Numbered from the stretch's first letter, positions 39,370 to 55,203 are shown. The stretch is DNA of 64,000 nt from Escherichia coli (GCF_003790525.1 NZ_CP033633.1), one strand, 5' to 3'. Numbers and translations: made by a program. The notes: a model not told the origin generated them from the sequence alone.

Positions 39370-40044
39370 TCAGCACAGGCTTAACAGTGTAAAAATGATT
39401 ACGCCTCCAAAAGCGAATAACAGGGGAATGTTTTTCTCCGGCTGTGTTGATCTCAGCGTTAATACCGGTGTGGCGAGAGCGTAAAAAATAATACCTGCGG
39501 TATAAATAAAATAAGGTGTGATGCCGGACAGATTACATACACTGGCGAATATCATAAGCATGACGGCAACTACCGATAAAATAATGGAAGTATTCTTCCA
39601 TTCACCAGATGGTGTAAGTGAAATGATATCGCCATCCTGTTTATAGTTCGTGTTCAGCTTCAGGAAATGACGGATATCTTTCAGCGTGTTCAGTTTCTGC
39701 TGGATCTCTTCCACAAGTTCCTGTCTGTCGGTTTTTTCACGGAGCAGCTGGAATTTTGTCTCCCTCAGTACAGATATAATACGGTCCACCTGGCCGGGGG
39801 AGGGATAGTAATGATGTTCGAGCATCCACCGGATATCGGCGATTAACCGGTCAGTTACCGGTGTATTACCGTTGTTAATGAGAGGTGTTTCGTGCATCCA
39901 CTGAAATATGCGGTAGATATGTCGCTTAACAAAAATAAAATCATCGGTGGTTTTATTCTCCAGCATGAGATATATCCCGTCGAGTGTTAATAATAAAACG
40001 TCCCGGGTGTGAGGTGATTTGTGATGTATTGTACGGAATATCAT
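39370..40044 (-). CDS. hypothetical protein with C-terminal TM segments, 224 aa, extra gene inside pil operon
   Basis: AT-richer than flanking pil genes; larger intergenic gaps (96 and 131 bp) than the tightly coupled pil genes. Confidence 0.4.
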   Translation of the reverse strand: MIFRTIHHKSPHTRDVLLLTLDGIYLMLENKTTDDFIFVKRHIYRIFQWMHETPLINNGNTPVTDRLIADIRWMLEHHYYPSPGQVDRIISVLRETKFQLLREKTDRQELVEEIQQKLNTLKDIRHFLKLNTNYKQDGDIISLTPSGEWKNTSIILSVVAVMLMIFASVCNLSGITPYFIYTAGIIFYALATPVLTLRSTQPEKNIPLLFAFGGVIIFTLLSLC

Positions 40045-40175
40045 TTCTGCACTGTAATCGTTTACGCAGGTGATATATCACACCAGAGTAAATACAGCGG
40101 AATGAAGCTGTAGAGTGACCAGAAAAGCCCGACGGGATCTTTTGCCCACAGGCATAAGAATGTCAGTCCGGTGCA

Positions 40176-40616
40176 TCATGCGCCGGCAAGTGCCGCGCAT
40201 AATTCAGCGCCTCCGGAATTGCCGCTCTTCATCATATAACAGAGCGCGATCAGCAGTGGGATAATGAAGACGAGCGGCAGGACAAAGGATTCGGCTGCGG
40301 ATATCCATTCCCGGTAACGCCAGCGGTCGTTTAATCTGTCGGCATCATATTTCAGACAGTTGCTCAGGAACGCCAGATCGTTCATGAGGGGGGCGTCCTG
40401 GCCATACTGCGCCGCGAGGCGCATTCTGGCACCCCACAACCGGGCACTCAGGGCACGGAGTTGTGCCGGGGTGACCTGTTTTCCCCGACAAAGTTGTACC
40501 TGTAATTGTGTTGCCTCGTGGACAATATCTGTGTGGTTCACCCCATATTCTGCAGCGGCTGTTTCCAGGTCACGGATGATCAGGCTGAGCCAGGATATCA
40601 GTTCACTGATGTTCAT
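40176..40616 (-). CDS. hypothetical protein with C-terminal TM anchor, 146 aa, extra gene inside pil operon
   Basis: ORF between pilP and pilQ; soluble N-terminal domain then hydrophobic helix. Confidence 0.4.
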   Translation of the reverse strand: MNISELISWLSLIIRDLETAAAEYGVNHTDIVHEATQLQVQLCRGKQVTPAQLRALSARLWGARMRLAAQYGQDAPLMNDLAFLSNCLKYDADRLNDRWRYREWISAAESFVLPLVFIIPLLIALCYMMKSGNSGGAELCAALAGA

Positions 40617-46929: not shown

Positions 46930-48624
46930 TTAAACCTGTTGTGGTTCTGAGTTATCCGGAGTGGTTACCGGTTCGCTGACATCCGGAACCTTTTCCGGGG
47001 CAGGCATGACCAGTGGACGTGTCAGGGCTGTAAGTCCTTCACCGGATAAACCCACCTCTTTCAGCAGGGAGTCGATGAGCGGAGCCTGTGTACGGTAAGC
47101 CAGAGCGGCGGTTACTGCCTGTTCAGCGAGATTTCCGCCACTTATGTCGGTTGTTGCTGTTTTACCGCGGGTAACACCGCCATTCAGACCATCCACCTGA
47201 ATGATTTTAATACCGTCAATGGATTTCATTGGTTCTGTGGACTTCTCTATGACGGCAGGTAATGCATCCAGCAGGGCAAGACGGAAGCGGAGGCTGGTCT
47301 GCTCATCCGAAAGCACGTTAATGGCATCGTTCAGTGCGCGCTGTGCTTCTGCTTCTGCCAGACCTTTCTGACGGGTGGCCTCCGCCAGTTCAATAATTGC
47401 TGCTGCCTGGAGTTCGGCTGCTTCTTTTTCAGCCTGTGCGCGAACCGTCAGTTCAACCGCTTTCGTTTCAGCTTCCTGAGCAGCAGCAATCAGGGCAACC
47501 TGTTTGGTACGGCCGGCCTCTGCAGTCTGGCGGGTGGTTTCCACATCCTGCTGGGCCTGTACGGCCTCAGCCAGTGCTTTACTTGCCCGGGCTTCTGCCT
47601 GTGACTGCTCTTCCGATTTTGCCGCCACGGCAATGGCTCTGGCCTGGCTGGCGATTTCGGTTGCCTGCTGTTGTTCAATTTCCCGTATGGCCACTTCCCG
47701 TTCGGCTTCGACCTGGCGGGTACGCACTATCTGCTGTCGTTCGATTTCGGCTTCCTCTATCTTACGTTCAGCCAGAATTCGCGCGGATTCTGCTTCACGA
47801 CGTCGTTCAGCTTCAATAGCAGCAATACTGGCACTCTGCTCTGCCGTACGGGTTTTTACCCGTTGTTGTTGCTCCAGAGTCATGAAGGCTTCCTGCTGTT
47901 CAATCTCCAGACGTCGGGAGAGTGCATCCCGGTTTTTTTCCCTGATGGCCACTTCAACATCCTGCTCAACTTCGTTGCGTTCGCGGCGACGACGTTCTGT
48001 TTCCTGGGTCAGAAGGGTCAGGCCTTCAGCATCAAAGGCATTGTCAGGATTAAAATGTACCCGTGCAGTCTGGTTGAAACTTGTCAGCGACACACTTTCA
48101 AGCTCCAGACCGTTTTTGGATAAGTCTTCCGCAACGGTGTTCTGCACACCCTGAACAAAGTTCTCGCGGGCATCCTGTAAATCCTGCATGCTCATTCTGG
48201 CCGCCGTGGCCCGTAGGGCATCAACAAATTTATCCTCGACCAGACTACGCAGATCTTCAGGTGTGAGCGTGCGTTGTCCCAGCGTCTGGGCTGCAGTGGA
48301 TATTCCTTCGGCTGATGGTTTTACCCGAAGAAAAAAGGCAACGGCAACATCAACACGCATGCGGTCGCGGGTTATGAGACTTTCAGCCGCTGCACGACTG
48401 ACTTCCAGCTTCAGGGTGTTCATGTTGACGGGAATTGTTTCGTGAAAAATGGGCATAACAATTGCACCGCCACTCATTACCACTTTTTGGCCTCCCAGAC
48501 CTGTGCGGACAAAGGCCTGCTCTGCCGATGCCCGGCGGTACAGGCGGGCAAATATCAGCCCGATAACGAACAGGGTGAGGACCAGCGCTATAACGGTAAA
48601 CAACCATCCCGGAAGATTAAACAT
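46930..48624 (-). CDS. flotillin-like SPFH/band-7 protein (YqiK-like)
   Basis: 564 aa; N-terminal TM, SPFH-like domain, then long Ala/Glu/Arg/Gln-rich coiled coil; paired with an upstream NfeD-like gene. Confidence 0.8.
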   Translation of the reverse strand: MFNLPGWLFTVIALVLTLFVIGLIFARLYRRASAEQAFVRTGLGGQKVVMSGGAIVMPIFHETIPVNMNTLKLEVSRAAAESLITRDRMRVDVAVAFFLRVKPSAEGISTAAQTLGQRTLTPEDLRSLVEDKFVDALRATAARMSMQDLQDARENFVQGVQNTVAEDLSKNGLELESVSLTSFNQTARVHFNPDNAFDAEGLTLLTQETERRRRERNEVEQDVEVAIREKNRDALSRRLEIEQQEAFMTLEQQQRVKTRTAEQSASIAAIEAERRREAESARILAERKIEEAEIERQQIVRTRQVEAEREVAIREIEQQQATEIASQARAIAVAAKSEEQSQAEARASKALAEAVQAQQDVETTRQTAEAGRTKQVALIAAAQEAETKAVELTVRAQAEKEAAELQAAAIIELAEATRQKGLAEAEAQRALNDAINVLSDEQTSLRFRLALLDALPAVIEKSTEPMKSIDGIKIIQVDGLNGGVTRGKTATTDISGGNLAEQAVTAALAYRTQAPLIDSLLKEVGLSGEGLTALTRPLVMPAPEKVPDVSEPVTTPDNSEPQQV

Positions 48625-48650
48625 AGTGAGAACCTCTGTATATGTCGGGA

Positions 48651-49271
48651 TTAAAGAACATCCGGCCAGGGATTCAGTTCGCCCAGCCAGCGGGAACCGG
48701 AAAGACGGCAGACAATAATCACTTTGTCTCCTCGTCTGAATTCTTTCCCGGCCTCCGGCTCCAGCAACAGGTAATGAACCTGCCCGAAGCGGTCTGTGAA
48801 GCGACCTTCACAGGGGGAACCCGCCACTGCGTGATAACCGGTGATGGTGGCCATACAGCCGATGAATGCCTCCTCGGTGAGCGCCGTTGTTTCATCACGG
48901 GGTAACCAGGGGGCAATCAGTCTGCCGGTGCGGTGTACGAGAGGACATGTCAGCAGCAGGCAAAGTGGTGTAAGGAGAATGTTCGGGGCAGGAGCCTGCA
49001 GCAGATGAATAATAAGACCCTGCAGGAGAATGCCGGATATACCAAAAAAACCTGCCAGCATACAGAGGACGATCAGCAGGGGGATCCGTCCGATGTTCAG
49101 CCAGTCCAGCGCCTCTCCTGTCAGCCCCTCCGGTAAATCAGGTGTATCCATAGCTGAAGAGAGGGAGTGTCCGCAGAGCAGGGCGATAAGTTCAGCGATA
49201 CCAGTAAGCAGAACAAAAGTCAGGGCTGCCAGATAGGGTGCGTTATACGCGGTAAGTAACGCCAGTGTCAT
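48651..49271 (-). CDS. NfeD-like membrane protein (YqiJ-like)
   Basis: 206 aa; polytopic N-terminal region plus C-terminal soluble OB-like domain; immediately upstream of the flotillin gene. Confidence 0.65.
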   Translation of the reverse strand: MTLALLTAYNAPYLAALTFVLLTGIAELIALLCGHSLSSAMDTPDLPEGLTGEALDWLNIGRIPLLIVLCMLAGFFGISGILLQGLIIHLLQAPAPNILLTPLCLLLTCPLVHRTGRLIAPWLPRDETTALTEEAFIGCMATITGYHAVAGSPCEGRFTDRFGQVHYLLLEPEAGKEFRRGDKVIIVCRLSGSRWLGELNPWPDVL

Positions 49272-49537: not shown

Positions 49538-50203
49538 TCAGTGTAACAGGTGATTGCTGTGATCTATGCCCCATTCGGCTTTCGGTAAACCTGAATGCCC
49601 CACATGAAGAATGCGTGACAGCATGTTTCTGCCGCTGCCGTTCAGGCTGCATTCGCGTCCGTGCGCGAGTATAAAACCTTCATCCCGGAATATATCTTCC
49701 ACTTCTGAAGATTCGAGGGATGCCGGATGAATTAATGAAAATGCCACCGGTCTGAGCATTCTGCCCGTGGTGGAAAAGGTGTCTCTGGTACTGTTCAGCT
49801 GCAGGATATGACGTTTACCTGTTTGCGCACGGGAAAGTGTCTCACTCAGCAGCTGGTCGTTCCATGCGCACGTGCCAATCTGCCATCCCAGACTTCTGCA
49901 CGCGGAAAGAGCCGAGCGGAAGCGGTACAGGTCGTATAATGCTGCGTTATTGCCACTTTCCAGCAGTGATTTCAACGTATTTGCTACCGGTATGTCCGTA
50001 TTGGTGGCCAGCAGTTTTCGCAGAGTCGTAAACTCTTCTGCCATTCCTCTGAACTCGCGCATCTGACGGGCAGTGTCAAGCCAGTTCAGCAGGTAACGCC
50101 GGCGACGCCGTTCGTTGTTTATGTTGTCCGGGGCGGTGGAGAGTGCTTCGAGCATATTCTCCAGTAACAGAATGACAGGGTTTTCCTGGGATAGAATGGT
50201 CAT
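49538..50203 (-). CDS. hypothetical protein, 221 aa
   Basis: First ORF downstream of the NusG-like gene; no family recognised. Confidence 0.4.
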   Translation of the reverse strand: MTILSQENPVILLLENMLEALSTAPDNINNERRRRRYLLNWLDTARQMREFRGMAEEFTTLRKLLATNTDIPVANTLKSLLESGNNAALYDLYRFRSALSACRSLGWQIGTCAWNDQLLSETLSRAQTGKRHILQLNSTRDTFSTTGRMLRPVAFSLIHPASLESSEVEDIFRDEGFILAHGRECSLNGSGRNMLSRILHVGHSGLPKAEWGIDHSNHLLH

Positions 50204-50343
50204 AAAGGCGTCCTGAAAAAATGCCCGACAGCCGCTCTCCGTACACCCTCAGGTGTCACCGGTGCCGGGCATTGTGGAAACAGAAGGGAAAAAAATCCCG
50301 GCCATAAAGGCCGGGAAAAGTCGTCAAATTAAGACAGCAATTT

Positions 50344-51051
50344 TCATGTCAACGCTCCGTCATCAGATACCAGGTGCAGGAGCAGGGCGATCCTCGACTC
50401 CGGCAGAGGCTGTGCATCAAGCCGGAGGAGGTACTGGTAACGCGCTTTTGTCAGCCAGAGGGTGGAGGCAGCATCCAGCTCCTCCCTGGCTGCCGGATTG
50501 AGCGCAGGATCCGGGTACACTTTCATTAAAGACTGAACGATATCCTCCCTGACGGTTTTGATTTCACCGGCCATTTTCACGAAGCCCAGAAAGGCACTGT
50601 GACGGCGCAGGTGAGTGAAAGCGTGGCGTTCGGGGTCTGCTTTCAGAAAGAAGTAACCGGGAAACACGGCGTGTATATGACGACGGTAACCACAGACTTT
50701 ATCCGTGCGGCGGACCTTTTTCAGTATCAGGGGTGTCCAGGGAAGGACGTGTTGTTCGGAAAGCCAGGAAAAGAGATGTTCGCGGTTTTTGCCGGCAGGG
50801 ATGTACTGTGCCAGATACCAGTTGCGTTGATGTAATTCACTGATATTCAAAATCCGGAACGCTCCGCGAAAATCGATCCCCGCAGGGGGGCTTCGATGTT
50901 GTTGTGAACGGCGAATACATAAAGCATGTGTCGGAAACAGCGGCTGACCCACGTTCAGCCCGGCCTGCAGTTCTGACAGGCACATGCACTGTGCACTCTT
51001 GTTAGCCTTGTGGACGGTTTCGAGGCGGGCGAAAACCGACAACTCCTGCAA
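50344..51051 (-). CDS. NusG/RfaH-family transcription antitermination factor paralog (ActX/TraB-like)
   Basis: NGN-domain alignment by eye to RfaH (WYLAQY vs WYLLYC; VFPGYFFLKADPE vs LFPNYLFVEFDPE); C-terminal domain does not show a KOW motif; real start may be TTG at 50850 (about 169 aa). Confidence 0.6.
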   Translation of the reverse strand: MQELSVFARLETVHKANKSAQCMCLSELQAGLNVGQPLFPTHALCIRRSQQHRSPPAGIDFRGAFRILNISELHQRNWYLAQYIPAGKNREHLFSWLSEQHVLPWTPLILKKVRRTDKVCGYRRHIHAVFPGYFFLKADPERHAFTHLRRHSAFLGFVKMAGEIKTVREDIVQSLMKVYPDPALNPAAREELDAASTLWLTKARYQYLLRLDAQPLPESRIALLLHLVSDDGALT

Positions 51052-51531
51052 ACAGGATTAATGGCTGGCAAATATATTACATAAGGATGTATCTGTGGCA
51101 ATAGTGAATATAAGTAGTTGAATAGATCGTTATATTTGATAAATAAGCGTATTATGCTGATTTGTGTGCAGTGTCTGGAGGATTAGATCGCTTAAAAATT
51201 TTAGGCGATCTCTTCTACTAAAAATGATGAAAAAAACAGCATAAAAGATCGTTTGTGAAATTGTTCATTTTTTGACACAGTTCAAAAAAACGACGCTTTT
51301 TAGGGGGTTAAAGAGGGCAACTGTAACCCTGAGAAATCGTGTCGGCTTTTCAAAGCGGTGGAAAAGGGGTATATTGCGGATCGTTATTCAGTGGCTTTTG
51401 GGATCCTCGCGGTCCGGAAAGCCAGAAAACGGCAGAATGCGCCATAAGGCATTCAGGATGTATGGCAGAAACGACGGCAGTTTGCCGGTGCCGGAAGGCT
51501 GAAAAAAGTTTCAGAAGGCCATAAAGGAAAA

Positions 51532-51582
51532 CCCCCATAATCTTCTCATCGAACTTGGCGGAACGTTAGAAGATTATGGGGG
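51532..51582 (-). ncRNA. candidate antisense copy-control RNA region (CopA/Inc-RNA-like stem-loop in repA leader)
   Basis: Perfect 15-bp inverted repeat CCCCCATAATCTTCT / AGAAGATTATGGGGG with about 21 nt loop, about 100 bp upstream of repA; promoter and 3' end not mapped. Confidence 0.35.
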
Positions 51583-51608
51583 CCTCACAGAATACGGGAT
51601 AAGTATAT

Positions 51609-51650
51609 ATGAAACCGTGTCAGAGATTCAACCCTTCGCAGTGTATTAAC
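51609..51650 (+). CDS. possible repA leader peptide (13 aa)
   Basis: ATG AAA CCG TGT ... TAA ([13 protein letters not shown]) 36 bp upstream of the repA start. Confidence 0.25.
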
Positions 51651-51685
51651 GCACGGCATTCTGTTTCCGCCATAAGCGACAGCTT

Positions 51686-52558
51686 GTGGCGGCCCTGAAC
51701 CAGACCTCATTCACTGAAAGCACATACCGTCAGGTAAAGAACCCGAATCCGGTCTTCACACCCCGTGAAGATGCCGGAACGCTGAAGTTCTGCGAAAAAC
51801 TGATGGAAAAGGCCGTGGGCTTCACCTCCCGTTTTGATTTTGCCGCGCATGTGGCGTATGCCCGTTCGCGCGGCCTGCGCCGGCGTATGCCGCCGGTGCT
51901 GCGCCGCCGGGCGATTGATGCGCTGCTGCAGGGGCTGTGTTTCCACTATGACCCGCTGGCCAACCGCGTGCAGTGCTCCATCACCACGCTGGCCATTGAG
52001 TGTGGTCTGGCGACAGAGTCTGAGGCCGGGAAACTCTCCATCACCCGTGCCACCCGTGCCCTGAAGTTCCTGGCAGAGCTGGGGCTGATGACCTACCAGA
52101 CGGAATACGACCCGACAATTGGCTGTAACATTCCGACCGACATCACGTTCACGCCGGCACTGTTTGCCTCACTCGATATCTCTGAAGAGGCGGTGGCTTC
52201 CGCACGCCGCAGCCGCGTGGAATGGGAAAACAAGCTGCGTAAAAAGCAGGGGCTGGATGCGCTGGGTATGGATGAACTGATAGCGAGAGCCTGGCGTTTT
52301 GTGCGCGAGCGTTTCCGCAGTTACCAGGCAGAGCGCAAGGCCCACGGCATGAAACGTGCCCGCGCTCGCCGTGATGCGGGCCGGACCCGTCAGGACATTG
52401 TCACCCTGGTGAAACGGCAGCTGACGCGTGAAATTGCGGAAGGGCGTTTCCGGGGAAGCCTGGAAACCGTGAAGCGCGAAATCGACCGTCGCGTGAAGGA
52501 GCGCATGATAATGTCGCGGAACAACAACTACACACGGCTGGCCACAGCCTCACCCTGA
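51686..52558 (+). CDS. repA: IncFII-family replication initiator RepA (RepA1)
   Basis: GTG start; translation [50 protein letters not shown] matches my memory of R100-type RepA1 nearly throughout. Confidence 0.9.
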
Positions 52559-52689
52559 GAGTGACCTCATCTGAATAATCCGGCCTGCGCCGGAGGCTTC
52601 CGCACGTCTGAAGCCCGGTGACGCACAAAAAAGCAGCACAGCACACAAAAAACAGCCTCATTATCTGCCTTCCGGCTCGCCTTGCTCCC

Positions 52690-52920
52690 CCTGTTTTTCA
52701 CGCAAAACACGTATCACAGACGGGGAATTCTGTTTATCCACATTTAACTGCAAGGGACTTCTCCGTAAGGTTACAACCGTTCATGCTATAAAGCGCCAGC
52801 CGCAGGCGTTACAGGGTGCAATGTTTCTTTTAAACCCCAGTACTGTATTTCCTTTAAACTACTTAATTACTTCCATTTAAAAAGAAAACCTATTCAATGC
52901 CTGTCCTGTGGACAGACAAA
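52690..52920 (+). other. probable replication origin region downstream of repA
   Basis: Consensus DnaA box TTATCCACA at 52734..52742 followed by an AT-rich stretch (52830-52900). Confidence 0.5.
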
Positions 52921-53504
52921 TATGCACCTCCCACGCTAACGCGCGGGCCCCAAACCTCACCGTTCTGAAACCACAGCAAAAAGACATCAGGAATAAAAAC
53001 ACCACACAAACGCAGCACCGTGCCCACCCCTCATAACTGAAAAGCGAGGCCGCCCCCGCCCGAAGGGCGGGAACAACATCGCTTTTAATTATGAATGTTG
53101 TAACTACATTGTCATCGCTGTCAGTCTTCTGGCTGGAAGTCCTCAGTACACGCTCGTAAGCGGCCCTCACGGCCCGCTAACGCGGAGATACGCCCCGACT
53201 TCGGGTAAACCCTCGTCGGGACCACTCCGACCGCGCACAGAAACTCTCTCATGGCTGAAAGCGGGTATGGTCTGGCAGGGCTGGGGATGGGTAAGGTGAA
53301 ATCTATCAATCAGTACCGGCTTACGCCGGGCTTCGGCGGTTTTACTCCTGTGCCATATGCTACAACGGAGTGCCGCCTTCCATGCCGCTGGCGCGGCATC
53401 AGAACAACTGAAGAGTGACGGCGCACATTAGCATCAAACAGACTTGTTAAGCAGTCTTTCAGGGTGTAATCTGAAGACCTGTTAAACAGTCTCAGAGGTG
53501 TGTT

Positions 53505-53756
53505 ATGCCCAGTATAATTTTGTCTGACACCAGTGCAAGCGTCAGTGAACTGAAAAAAAATCCAATGGCGACAGTCAGTGCCGGAGAGGGTTATCCTGTT
53601 GCCATTCTTAACCGGAATCAGCCTGCATTCTACTGTGTTCCAGCTGAGCTCTATGAAAGGATGCTTGATGCCCTGGATGACCAGGAGCTGGTGAAACTGG
53701 TTACTGAGCGCAGCAGTCAGCCTCTGCATTATGTGGACCTGGACAGTTATTTATGA
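53505..53756 (+). CDS. stbD: Phd/YefM-RelB family antitoxin (StbD-like)
   Basis: 83 aa; SASVSELKKNPMATV motif; 4-bp overlap with the downstream toxin gene. Confidence 0.8.
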   Translation: MPSIILSDTSASVSELKKNPMATVSAGEGYPVAILNRNQPAFYCVPAELYERMLDALDDQELVKLVTERSSQPLHYVDLDSYL

Positions 53757-54040
53757 CTTATACGGTTAAATTCAGGGATGATGCACTGAAAGAATGGCTC
53801 AGACTGGATAAGGCCATTCAGCAGCAGTTCGCAAAAAAACTAAAAAAATGCAGTGAAAATCCTCATATAGCCTCTGCAAAACTACGTGGATTAAAAGATT
53901 GCTACAAAATAAAACTTCGCGCATCAGGTTTTCGTCTGGTCTATCAGGTGATTGATGACATGTTAATTATTGCGGTTGTCGCAGTAGGTAAACGTGAACG
54001 TAGTCATGTTTACAATCTCGCCAGCGAGAGAATGAGATAG
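53753..54040 (+). CDS. stbE: RelE/ParE family toxin (StbE-like)
   Basis: 95 aa; RelE-like fold signature (YKIKLRASGFRLVYQVIDDMLIIAVVAVGKRE). Confidence 0.8.
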   Translation: MTYTVKFRDDALKEWLRLDKAIQQQFAKKLKKCSENPHIASAKLRGLKDCYKIKLRASGFRLVYQVIDDMLIIAVVAVGKRERSHVYNLASERMR

Positions 54041-54049
54041 GGGGTGTAA

Positions 54050-54337
54050 ATGCTTTTAAGTTTTAGTGAGTTAGATGTTCTTATTTATCAGGGGAAGGTT
54101 GGGGGTTTATTTCGTGAAAGAAAAAATGAAAGGGTTGCTACAGACATTGATTCCAGAAACAAGTCATCATCAAGCAGTCATGAATATGATTCAGTTTTAT
54201 CATTTCAATTTATTTGTGATAATGGAAAAGAAATAAATGTGAATTTAACAAATTGGAATATTAACATATTTCCAGGTCAAGAGCTCATTATTTATTTTGT
54301 GGAAAACTCAAAAAAAACAAAAAAATACCATACATGA
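54050..54337 (+). CDS. hypothetical protein, 95 aa, very AT-rich
   Basis: ATG 9 bp after stbE stop with GGGGGTG upstream; Ser-rich; GC far below neighbours. Confidence 0.35.
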   Translation: MLLSFSELDVLIYQGKVGGLFRERKNERVATDIDSRNKSSSSSHEYDSVLSFQFICDNGKEINVNLTNWNINIFPGQELIIYFVENSKKTKKYHT

Positions 54338-54594
54338 TAAAAAACAAAAGTACATCGGAAGTAACTAATAATGTTCAAGAAATGTATAAAGAGTTTTTTT
54401 ATACATCATACTTCAAACTGATAATACCTTTCCTGTTAATCATTTCTTACTTTATGTCATCCATATCTGTGGCTATCATGTCATTCGTTTTATATGTCAT
54501 AATCAGAAGAAGAATAGGAAAAGATTTCTTTTCAGAAATAAAAAGGAAAAGGTTAAAAAAAGAAGATATCATGGGGTTAGAGCACGTAATATAG
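54334..54594 (+). CDS. hypothetical small membrane protein, 86 aa, very AT-rich
   Basis: ATGA start/stop overlap with preceding ORF; one TM (IIPFLLIISYFMSSISVAIMSFVLYVII) and basic C-terminus. Confidence 0.35.
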   Translation: MIKNKSTSEVTNNVQEMYKEFFYTSYFKLIIPFLLIISYFMSSISVAIMSFVLYVIIRRRIGKDFFSEIKRKRLKKEDIMGLEHVI

Positions 54595-54595
54595 G

Positions 54596-54930
54596 GGCGA
54601 CTGGTCCTTATAAGGGACCGTCTAGGGACCGGAGTTCCATTGCTACGCCGGAACCGCCGAAATTTCCGGCGTAGCTCTCTCTTGCCTGGACGTTCTGTTG
54701 TGGGGTTTGAGGGCCAATGGAACGAAAGCGTACGGTAAGGGCTCCGTTTGGGAAACGGACAATATTGTACGGTTGCGTTATCGCGGTAGGGTGTACTCCC
54801 GCGCTGTACGGTGTTTTCAGGAGAATTGGTCTTAATCGGATAACCTAAATGCGATACAGCAAGAGCGACAACTTAAAAGCGATTAAACCTCCGCCGCCAG
54901 AACGGTACAGTCCCTGACACAGGCACCACT
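54596..54930. other. GC-rich structured intergenic element (candidate ncRNA or cis-regulatory structure)
   Basis: Nested inverted repeats: GCTACGCCGGAA...TTCCGGCGTAGC (54643..54675), GGTCC-TTATAA-GGGACC, GTTCCATTG...CAATGGAAC, CCGTTTGGGAAACGG; sits between two AT-rich gene clusters. Confidence 0.4.
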
Positions 54931-54966
54931 GGTATAATCCAGTAAAGAGCATATGGAGAACTTATC

Positions 54967-55203
54967 ATGTCGTTACGCAACTCTATACATGATTTTATAA
55001 TGCTGCTCCCGGCGCTGCTGTTGGTTGGGTGGTTAGTTTTGGTGATAATTCTCATGTTTAGGGATGATAAATGTGACAAAACTTACCGTGAAGGTTCGTT
55101 TCCCGAATTTATTTGTCTCCATTCTGAACGCTCGTCACTTCGAGAAACCGATTCTGAGAGACTCAATGTCAAATATACAGAAAACAATCACAAAAATAGG
55201 TAA
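54967..55203 (+). CDS. hypothetical small membrane protein, 78 aa
   Basis: Follows an extended -10 (TGGTATAAT) at about 54935; one TM helix; AT-rich. Confidence 0.3.
   Translation: MSLRNSIHDFIMLLPALLLVGWLVLVIILMFRDDKCDKTYREGSFPEFICLHSERSSLRETDSERLNVKYTENNHKNR

Follow-up and report, generated by a model that had tools for sequence, protein, structure and literature searches.

This locus raises the question of what kind of plasmid replicon it carries. We analyzed a stretch of 64,000 nucleotides of Escherichia coli DNA (GCF_003790525.1, NZ_CP033633.1; the window hereafter), in which the gene for an IncFII-family replication initiator, repA, lies beside the pil and tra genes of an I-type transfer system and is followed by a structured region beyond the replication origin. 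The original prediction described positions 51520-53500 as an IncFII-type replicon in a hybrid backbone, and proposed that 53100-53500 may be a single-strand initiation (ssi) site or a partition-related site. We found that the locus is very probably the already described basic replicon of an IncK2/Z plasmid, a subgroup of the I-complex. The guess of single-strand initiation was supported and is most likely correct, as judged by homology to the G-site region of plasmids R1 and R100.

To place the replicon among known plasmids, we compared positions 51100-53500 with PLSDB, in which 171 records match at least 80% of this query. The relatives examined (pEF5-18-41_2, pO111-CRL-115, pDV45 and pE16-3) are conjugative plasmids with MPF_I and MOBP transfer functions that are typed IncK2/Z in the MOB-suite/PLSDB assignments, and IncK2/Z is the sole replicon typed in pEF5-18-41_2 and pE16-3. 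Over 24.5 kb (39500-64000), the window is 99.7-99.8% identical to complete 130-150-kb chicken E. coli plasmids resembling pE16-3. Over 51100-53500, the identity is about 99% (up to 99.2%) to the chicken plasmids and 95.5-95.8% to pO111-CRL-115, pO26-CRL-125 and pDV45. IncK2/Z is a recognised I-complex subgroup that is defined by the rep gene and origin repeats and whose members share over 95% nucleotide identity (PMC6361801); the window exceeds this value over the 2.4-kb query, which includes repA. The I-complex replicon has been described as repA, a leader gene repB and RNAI (PMC10286972). The original prediction had also raised the possibility that RepA is truncated and that the plasmid replicates from another replicon outside the window. 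This does not hold, as RepA is full length and the closest complete plasmids are typed IncK2/Z only.

We then analyzed the initiator and the origin. The repA gene (51686-52558, + strand) starts with GTG and encodes an intact protein of 290 aa. In the profile search, RepA matched TIGR03474 (incFII_RepA) over positions 1-275 of 275 with 562 bits, against a cut-off of 447, and the open reading frame (ORF) was also matched by Pfam PF02387. RepA is 86% identical in amino acids to R100 RepA1 over 284 aa without gaps, in agreement with the earlier description of a near-canonical RepA1, and only 24% identical to R64 RepZ, over 101 aa. The gene is annotated identically in the near-identical plasmids NZ_CP063494 and NZ_CP119729. 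Between repA and the origin lies the CIS spacer (52559-52733, + strand), which shares 82.6% identity with its R100 counterpart and is not related to R64. In R1, CIS keeps RepA cis-acting.

The oriR-type origin was placed at 52713-52900, with approximate limits set by analogy with the 188-bp oriR of R1. It contains the DnaA box TTATCCACA at 52734-52742, a RepA-binding stretch and, at its AT-rich end, three TTTAAA-containing 11-mers at 52824, 52848 and 52871, spaced 23-24 bp apart. The GC content over 52700-52899 is 0.40, so that the DnaA box and the AT-rich origin of the original prediction were both found. Global alignment gave 89.7% identity to the R100 oriR and about 46%, the background level, to R64. 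On these comparisons, the initiator and the origin are judged to be of the IncFII (R1/R100) type and intact.

The copy-control region ahead of repA is of the I-complex type. Figures from Rfam were clear in this respect: PK-repZ (RF01087) matched 51524-51673 on the + strand with 177.4 bits over model positions 1-150 of 150, against a gathering score of 44. PK-repZ represents the pseudoknot region that controls repZ in IncI1 plasmids. The match includes stem-loop I, with arms at 51532-51545 and 51569-51582 (the antisense-target hairpin noted earlier) and TTGGCG in the loop at 51555-51560. It also includes the distal pseudoknot partner TTTCCGCCAT at 51664-51673, which is complementary to the loop and lies 13 nt ahead of the repA start codon, an arrangement that an I-complex pseudoknot needs. 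This control region is about 80% identical to R64, 35-60% to R100 and 92% to the IncK1 plasmid pCT. A consensus scan placed a candidate promoter of the leader/repA mRNA, TTTTCA-17-TATATT, at 51347-51375 on the + strand, within a block that is 92% identical to pCT.

The putative antisense RNAI (Inc RNA) gene occupies 51523-51610 on the - strand, with a candidate promoter from the promoter scan (TTGAAT-18-TATACT, 51631-51602) and a 3' hairpin followed by a T-run. The Rfam CopA model matched this strand with 41.1 bits, which is under its gathering score of 60, and the same bases, only 61% identical to R100, are matched by PK-repZ. The leader peptide of the original prediction was found as an ORF of 29 aa at 51609-51698 on the + strand. 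It is of the RepY/RepB type: at the DNA level it can be aligned with the leader of R64 but not with tap of R100, and 21 of its 29 amino acids are identical to the R64 leader. The leader stop codon lies 10 nt past the repA GTG (51686), inside repA, which implies translational coupling. By analogy, the leader would be the functional counterpart of Tap.

When the R100 CopB (RepA2) protein was compared with the 64-kb window by tblastn, the best match had an E value of 0.9 and lay elsewhere in the window. The tblastn search with R100 Tap found no homolog in the window, and that for RepZ gave no match. Since the control region is of the PK-repZ type, the CopA match is below threshold, the window has no CopB or Tap, and the relatives are typed IncK2/Z, the replicon is not IncFII as a unit. 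The IncFII assignment of the original prediction thus stands for the initiator and origin and fails for the control region. The proper label is an IncK2/Z (I-complex) replicon; the NCBI product name "incFII family RepA" invites the same mis-typing as IncFII.

The RNAI stem and loop were also set against their IncZ, IncK2, IncI1 and IncFII counterparts. The lower stem and the TTGGCG loop are as in IncZ. In the upper stem and interior loop (51546-51568), about 5-6 positions differ from the IncZ plasmid pO111-CRL-115, and the upper stem is more different from the IncK2 plasmid pDV45 than from pO111-CRL-115. The upper-stem variant is common to the 99% identical chicken E. coli relatives. This variant may confer altered incompatibility behaviour, as a distinct incompatibility variant, and in the chicken E. 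coli lineage it could represent a new incompatibility subtype within IncK2/Z.

How an IncFII-type initiator came to lie behind an I-complex control region can be followed in the segment identities, which were read directly from global alignments with R64 and R100. Positions 51400-51698 are 61-82% identical to R64 and 34-61% to R100. Positions 51725-52925, which cover repA, CIS and oriR, are 42-46% identical to R64 (background) and 83-90% to R100. Positions 52926-53084 are 96% identical to R64 and 68% to R100, positions 53085-53399 are 93-100% identical to R64 and 95-100% to R100, and the sequence beyond 53400 is unrelated to either plasmid. In the alignment with pCT, window positions 51004-51710 are 91.8% identical to pCT 3-711 and positions 52924-53399 are 94.4% identical to pCT 2087-2564, and there is no alignment between about 51710 and about 52924. 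Both pCT and R64 carry a 343-aa RepZ-type initiator at this position. As read from these alignments, a 1.2-kb FII-type repA-CIS-oriR cassette (about 51711-52923) replaces the RepZ cassette in an I-complex frame. Such a swap is biologically plausible: the RepA of R1 serves its own origin in cis, so that the initiator and the origin must move together, and the antisense control is a separate module. PMC5466382 attributes recombination between FII and B/K/Z replicons to Praszkier 1991. The FII/I-complex mosaic is old and already in the literature (PMC5466382; PMC6361801).

The original prediction took the adjacency of the replicon and the R64-like pil/tra genes as the sign of a hybrid backbone. 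The adjacency itself was confirmed: the pil/tra genes lie directly upstream of the replicon on the - strand and encode a NusG-like TraB, TraC and PilN/PilM/TcpQ-like proteins. In R64, NusG-family traB, traC, traD and pilI to pilV lie upstream of repZ, across the record origin and on the opposite strand. The gene order and orientation in the window are as in R64, and TraB and TraC are 65% and 38% identical to the R64 proteins (orthologous). Since pil-traD-traC-traB-rep is also the order in R64, a rep gene next to pil/tra is what an I-complex plasmid normally has, and against pCT only the 1.2-kb cassette differs. No F-type tra genes were seen in the window, so that the term hybrid backbone does not apply.

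A related possibility is that the locus is a recent, unusual hybrid or cointegrate of IncFII (F-type) and I-type conjugative plasmids, as could be suggested by RepA and oriR sequences 85-90% identical to R100 beside I-type pil/tra genes. This is highly improbable. The FII-like DNA spans 1.2 kb only, with both flanks 92-94% identical to IncK1 pCT; CopB, Tap and F-type tra genes are missing from the window; and 86% identity to R100 is not recent. Furthermore, the same arrangement, typed IncK2/Z, is found in the 171 PLSDB records, and the mosaic has been described since 1991 according to PMC5466382.

One further observation was made among the transfer genes. Genes for a flotillin (SPFH/Band 7) and a YqiJ/NfeD-like membrane OB-fold protein lie at 46930-49271 between pilI and traC. 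R64 has no flotillin/YqiJ-like pair there, and the pair is the sole difference in gene layout at that spot.

Beyond the cassette, the I-complex frame resumes with a post-origin segment (52926-53084) that is 95.6% identical to R64, 68% to R100 and 94% to pCT. The terminator scan found a GC hairpin at 53049-53077 in this segment, terminator-like on the - strand, and the alignment showed a compensatory change in this hairpin between the window and R100. It is followed by a predicted Tus-binding Ter site, ATTATGAATGTTGTAACTACATT, at 53088-53110 on the + strand. The Ter core GAATGTTGTAACTA at 53093-53106 has zero mismatches to GNRNGTTGTAAYKA and is the sole such match in the 64 kb. Positions 53085-53107, which cover 20 of the 23 Ter bases, are identical in R100 and R64.

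The orientation of the Ter site was deduced by comparison with TerB, which stops the clockwise fork in E. coli. In MG1655, the + strand carries TerB as AATAAGTATGTTGTAACTAAAGT a short way upstream of tus. The strand position of TerB in MG1655 thus indicates that the window Ter is oriented to stop rightward forks. Its G6 and core positions 8-19 are identical to TerB, with 17 of 23 positions matching in all. Unlike the chromosomal Ter sites, which form a two-sided trap, the window site is plasmid-borne, single and about 190 bp past the origin, and its predicted use is to end a unidirectional round of replication. R1 has two ter sites between oriR and the leading-strand start, of which terRL halts the counter-clockwise fork at once and terRR halts the clockwise fork after the plasmid has been copied (PMC10331603). 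By homology, the window Ter corresponds to R1 terRR. R100 carries the terRR counterpart plus an inverted Ter 131 bp to its left (terRL; R100 40060-40100), and both Ter sites are present in 13 of 20 scanned FII-type replicons from other Enterobacterales. In contrast to R100, Ter scans of the window, R64, pO111-CRL-115 and pDV45 found the right Ter only and no left Ter (terRL). The scanned I-complex versions of the module thus carry one of the two R1 Ter sites. A promoter-like sequence on the - strand, ATGACA-16-CATAAT (10 of 12 matches), overlaps Ter at 53088-53115, as TerB overlaps the tus promoter region; this may be a chance occurrence.

The region that follows Ter was described in the original prediction as GC-rich and hairpin-prone over 53100-53500. 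This was correct for 53100-53399, which has a GC content of 0.59 and contains hairpins, including the quoted hairpin GCGGCCCTCACGGCCCGC at 53160-53177. It was not correct for the remainder, as the conserved element ends at 53399, where the homology to R100, R64 and pCT stops, and the rest is probably a toxin-antitoxin operator region. The right end of the module is marked by a conserved terminal hairpin, ATGCCGC-N4-GCGGCAT (53382-53399), whose 7-bp stem shows compensatory changes at 3 pairs among 16 homologs. The module is widespread: positions 53110-53400 are found in at least 5000 plasmid records, each at 90% identity or more, and are far more uniform than the adjoining rep genes. At 74-97% identity, the module follows oriR and Ter in FII-type replicons of Pantoea, Erwinia, Hafnia, Izhakiella, Mixta, Citrobacter, Lelliottia and others. 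Its R100 counterpart (R100 40240-40519) is 95% identical to 53108-53399. No second copy of the module was found in the 64-kb window.

We found that base pairing is conserved in this module. When single-stranded DNA folding was compared with that of shuffled sequences, the - strand had a z score of -3.3, with 0 of 200 shuffles as good, and the + strand was weaker (z = -1.9). A conserved multi-hairpin cluster that includes hairpin 53160-53177 occupies 53148-53238 on the - strand. In 19 diverged replicons, the cluster has a common fold in which 98.9% of cells are paired. Covariation was observed directly, as 7 of the 29 pairs have compensatory changes; the shuffles had a mean of 1.2, with 0 of 500 reaching 7, and slid controls gave 0-3. 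The strand asymmetry was equally direct: the consensus fold of the cluster has -38.6 kcal/mol on the - strand and -27.3 kcal/mol on the + strand, and folding with DNA parameters was better on the - strand in 19 of 19 homologs. The - strand is both the structured strand and the template for a leading strand growing to the right, which is the direction that the orientation of Ter leaves open. As a mildly useful by-product, the covariation and strand asymmetry among about 20 diverged replicons indicate that selection maintains the structure of these hairpins in the leading-strand template. By homology with the R1/R100 region, the cluster probably belongs to a primase-recognised single-strand initiation region.

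Could the module instead encode a protein? The sole ORF in the region (53251-53418, 55 aa) is annotated by RefSeq as a coding sequence for a hypothetical protein at the same place in close relatives, and R100 has an ORF of 128 aa across its Ter sites, so that a small protein, either the annotated 55-aa product or a RepA4-like product, might be encoded in 53100-53420. In the diverged homologs, however, the 55-aa ORF has stops, a missing start, and insertions and deletions that are not multiples of three, although the DNA is conserved. This loss indicates that conservation of the module is not protein-coding. The ORF has no Pfam or NCBIfam match, and conservation tracks base pairing and not codons. 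We therefore agree with the original prediction that the region has no convincing ORF, and we see very little chance that it encodes a small protein. The 55-aa "hypothetical protein" is probably a false gene call over the conserved non-coding Ter/priming module.

Alternatively, the hairpin cluster may act as RNA, such as a small RNA, a terminator or a 3' untranslated region element, and not as single-stranded DNA. Covariation alone cannot tell RNA from single-stranded DNA, and terminator-like hairpins are present at 53324-53338 on the + strand and 53049-53077 on the - strand. On the other hand, the Rfam search over 50000-55000 at E <= 1 found no family in 53100-53500, and the promoter scan found no leftward promoter-like site to the right of the cluster, as would be expected for an RNA from the favoured - strand. 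Moreover, leading-strand synthesis starts in the homologous region of R1 (PMC10331603) and of NR1. An RNA role is thus improbable, if less so than a coding one. The partition-related (centromere-like) site of the original prediction fared worst of all, and we give it almost no credence. The region adjoins the replicon and is non-coding, as such a site might be; but 53100-53400 contains no iterated direct or inverted repeat array, and no ParA or ParB gene is adjacent, ParA being elsewhere in the relatives. In addition, when a plasmid with an IncZ replicon was studied by transposon-directed insertion-site sequencing, the replicon region and parAB proved to be the units needed for maintenance, with partition at the separate parAB locus (PMC10286972).

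The preferred reading is that the module serves single-strand initiation. In R1, DnaG primase needs no other priming protein to start the leading strand, in vitro as well as in vivo, and does so at a G site that lies about 380-400 bp past oriR; homologous G sites are present in R100 and ColIb-P9. The leading strand of NR1 starts close to where the repA4 ORF ends, an ORF that includes the ter repeats as well, and deletions of repA4 in NR1 reportedly reduce copy number or stability. From this homology, the entire module can be placed in the G-site region of R1/R100 with good confidence, as a predicted rather than a mapped site. A candidate primer start was found at 53311-53330 on the - strand, where the hairpin CCGGCGTAAGCCGG (53316-53329) is followed by TACTG, with the CTG at 53313-53311. 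The predicted primer, in which we have moderate confidence, would be 5'-AGUACCGG..., with its first base at 53312 and extension to the right. Its precise start and the extent of the G site are placed from background on R1 and R100 together with homology.

Several observations are consistent with this candidate. In R100 coordinates, the candidate CTG is 419 bp past the estimated right end of oriR. The only R100 ORF that fits repA4 (40033-40419, 128 aa) spans the Ter sites and ends at a position that maps to about 53299 in the window, so that the candidate CTG lies 12 nt past the end of this ORF. The hairpin at 53316-53329 is kept by compensatory changes in the Citrobacter and Hafnia homologs, as read by eye, since the loop length varies between homologs and defeats column-wise pair counts. 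The annotated complementary-strand origin of phage G4, a primase-only priming site, has a hairpin followed by CCCTACTGC, and its primer 5'-AGUAGGG starts opposite the T of CTG. Common to the G4 origin and the window is a hairpin just 5' of TACTG on the template, with a predicted primer that copies the hairpin and begins AGUA in the window as in G4. The two sites differ in how many hairpins they have and how these are arranged.

Other observations weigh against this assignment. The resemblance to G4 is confined to the short hairpin-TACTG motif: when the G4 origin was compared with both strands of 53000-53450, the scores of 19-20 were at chance level (shuffle mean 18.5). The candidate CTG is not conserved in more diverged replicons. 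A second hairpin-TACTG module (53144-53148) is found on the same strand after the hairpin cluster. A 1994 study by Tanaka reportedly found that the secondary structure proposed for the R100 G site is dispensable, which fits poorly with the covariation described here. Finally, a helicase that moves for the first time from oriR to the priming site would likewise meet the blocking face of Ter.

The two hairpin-TACTG modules on one strand, and the two conserved domains with a less conserved stretch between them, raise the possibility that cluster 53148-53238 is separate from the G site. The cluster would then be a PriA-type primosome assembly site or a second primase site (CTG at 53144-53146), and the G site would be at about 53312. 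The R1 derivative pSY343 is said to have two ssi signals. However, a separate element looks the same as a bipartite G site in these data, CTG 53144-53146 is not conserved in diverged replicons, and domains I and III of the R100 G site are reportedly both primase-bound. A separate site is therefore unlikely, although it is the most plausible of the alternatives considered. Since the structure of the cluster is kept by compensatory changes across FII-type and I-complex replicons of Enterobacterales, we also considered whether the cluster is a functional element in its own right, beyond the published G-site description. As such, it might serve as an additional site of priming or primosome loading, or its structure might help the origin-loaded helicase past Tus at the adjacent, wrongly oriented Ter. 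We hold such a role to be doubtful, and somewhat more so than a separate site.

On the preferred reading, the locus would work as follows; the RNAI/pseudoknot mechanism, the action of RepA in cis, priming by primase and the arrest by Tus are carried over from R1, NR1 and ColIb-P9 by homology. The constitutive antisense RNAI (- strand, about 51523-51610) would pair with stem-loop I of the rep mRNA. With stem-loop I paired in this way, the 29-aa leader would not be translated, and the pseudoknot that is needed for repA translation (GGCG of the loop with the downstream CGCC, 51667-51671) would not form. RepA, once made, would act in cis on the adjoining oriR with its DnaA box, RepA-binding stretch and AT-rich 9-mers, and DnaB loaded at the origin would unwind the DNA rightward. 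The exposed - strand would fold into the conserved hairpins, and DnaG would lay the leading-strand primer about 400 bp past the origin, most likely at CTG 53311-53313. Replication would proceed rightward only. After one round, the fork arriving from the left would be halted by Tus at Ter (53088-53110), short of the leading-strand 5' end, and this arrest would keep the strand from being displaced and the plasmid from over-replicating as a rolling circle.

To the right of the module, positions 53400-53500 are unrelated to R100, R64 and pCT and are not part of the replicon. They contain two 18-nt imperfect palindromes of one repeat family, AGACTTGTTAAGCAGTCT (53440-53457) and AGACCTGTTAAACAGTCT (53475-53492). 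A Phd/YefM antitoxin and RelE/ParE toxin pair follows at 53505-54040 (Pfam PhdYeFM and ParE_toxin), and the palindromes are likely the operators of this pair. In pCT, a different pair, yacA/yacB, is found at the same position. Beside the toxin-antitoxin pair, 54050-54600 is very AT-rich (GC 0.23-0.29), with two small ORFs of 95 and 86 aa, and looks like foreign DNA.

Relatives of the locus were also found outside plasmid records. A scan of IMG/VR for the module returned six contigs, one of them with an FII RepA. In four contigs (L033, L036, L037 and L038), which are filed as viral and in which the module is 92-94% identical, no adjacent FII RepA or RepZ was detected. In L038 (6619-7093), the module lies directly between cytochrome bd-type oxidase genes and the same RelE gene, and it has the look of a replicon remnant. 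Loci for FII-type RepA proteins with 85-86% identity to the RepA of the window were found in assemblies labelled Streptomyces morookaense (L009) and as a Lachnospiraceae metagenome-assembled genome (L012). These are most likely contaminating enterobacterial plasmid contigs.

Taken together, all parts of the locus map onto described systems that occur in hundreds to thousands of sequenced plasmids, and the locus is of little importance beyond correct annotation. The closest of these systems are the IncK2/Z replicons, namely those of the IncZ plasmids pO26-CRL-125 and pO111-CRL-115, the IncK2 plasmid pDV45, pE16-3 and pEF5-18-41_2. Their architecture is the same as that of the window throughout, and they share with it MPF_I/MOBP transfer and the downstream Phd/YefM-RelE pair. 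The IncFII replicons R100/NR1 and R1 are alike in RepA, CIS and oriR (83-90% nucleotide identity), in terRR and in the downstream module. However, their CopB, Tap leader, CopA/CopT and terRL are missing from the window, which has the I-complex RNAI/pseudoknot instead of CopA/CopT, and their transfer system is F-type whereas that of the window is I-type. The IncI1 plasmids ColIb-P9 and R64 and the IncK1 plasmid pCT are alike in the PK-repZ control, the leader, the TTGGCG loop and the upstream traB/traC/pil order, and their post-origin segment, Ter and priming module are 94-96% identical to those of the window, while the initiator, CIS and origin of R64 and pCT are unrelated to those of the window at the DNA level.

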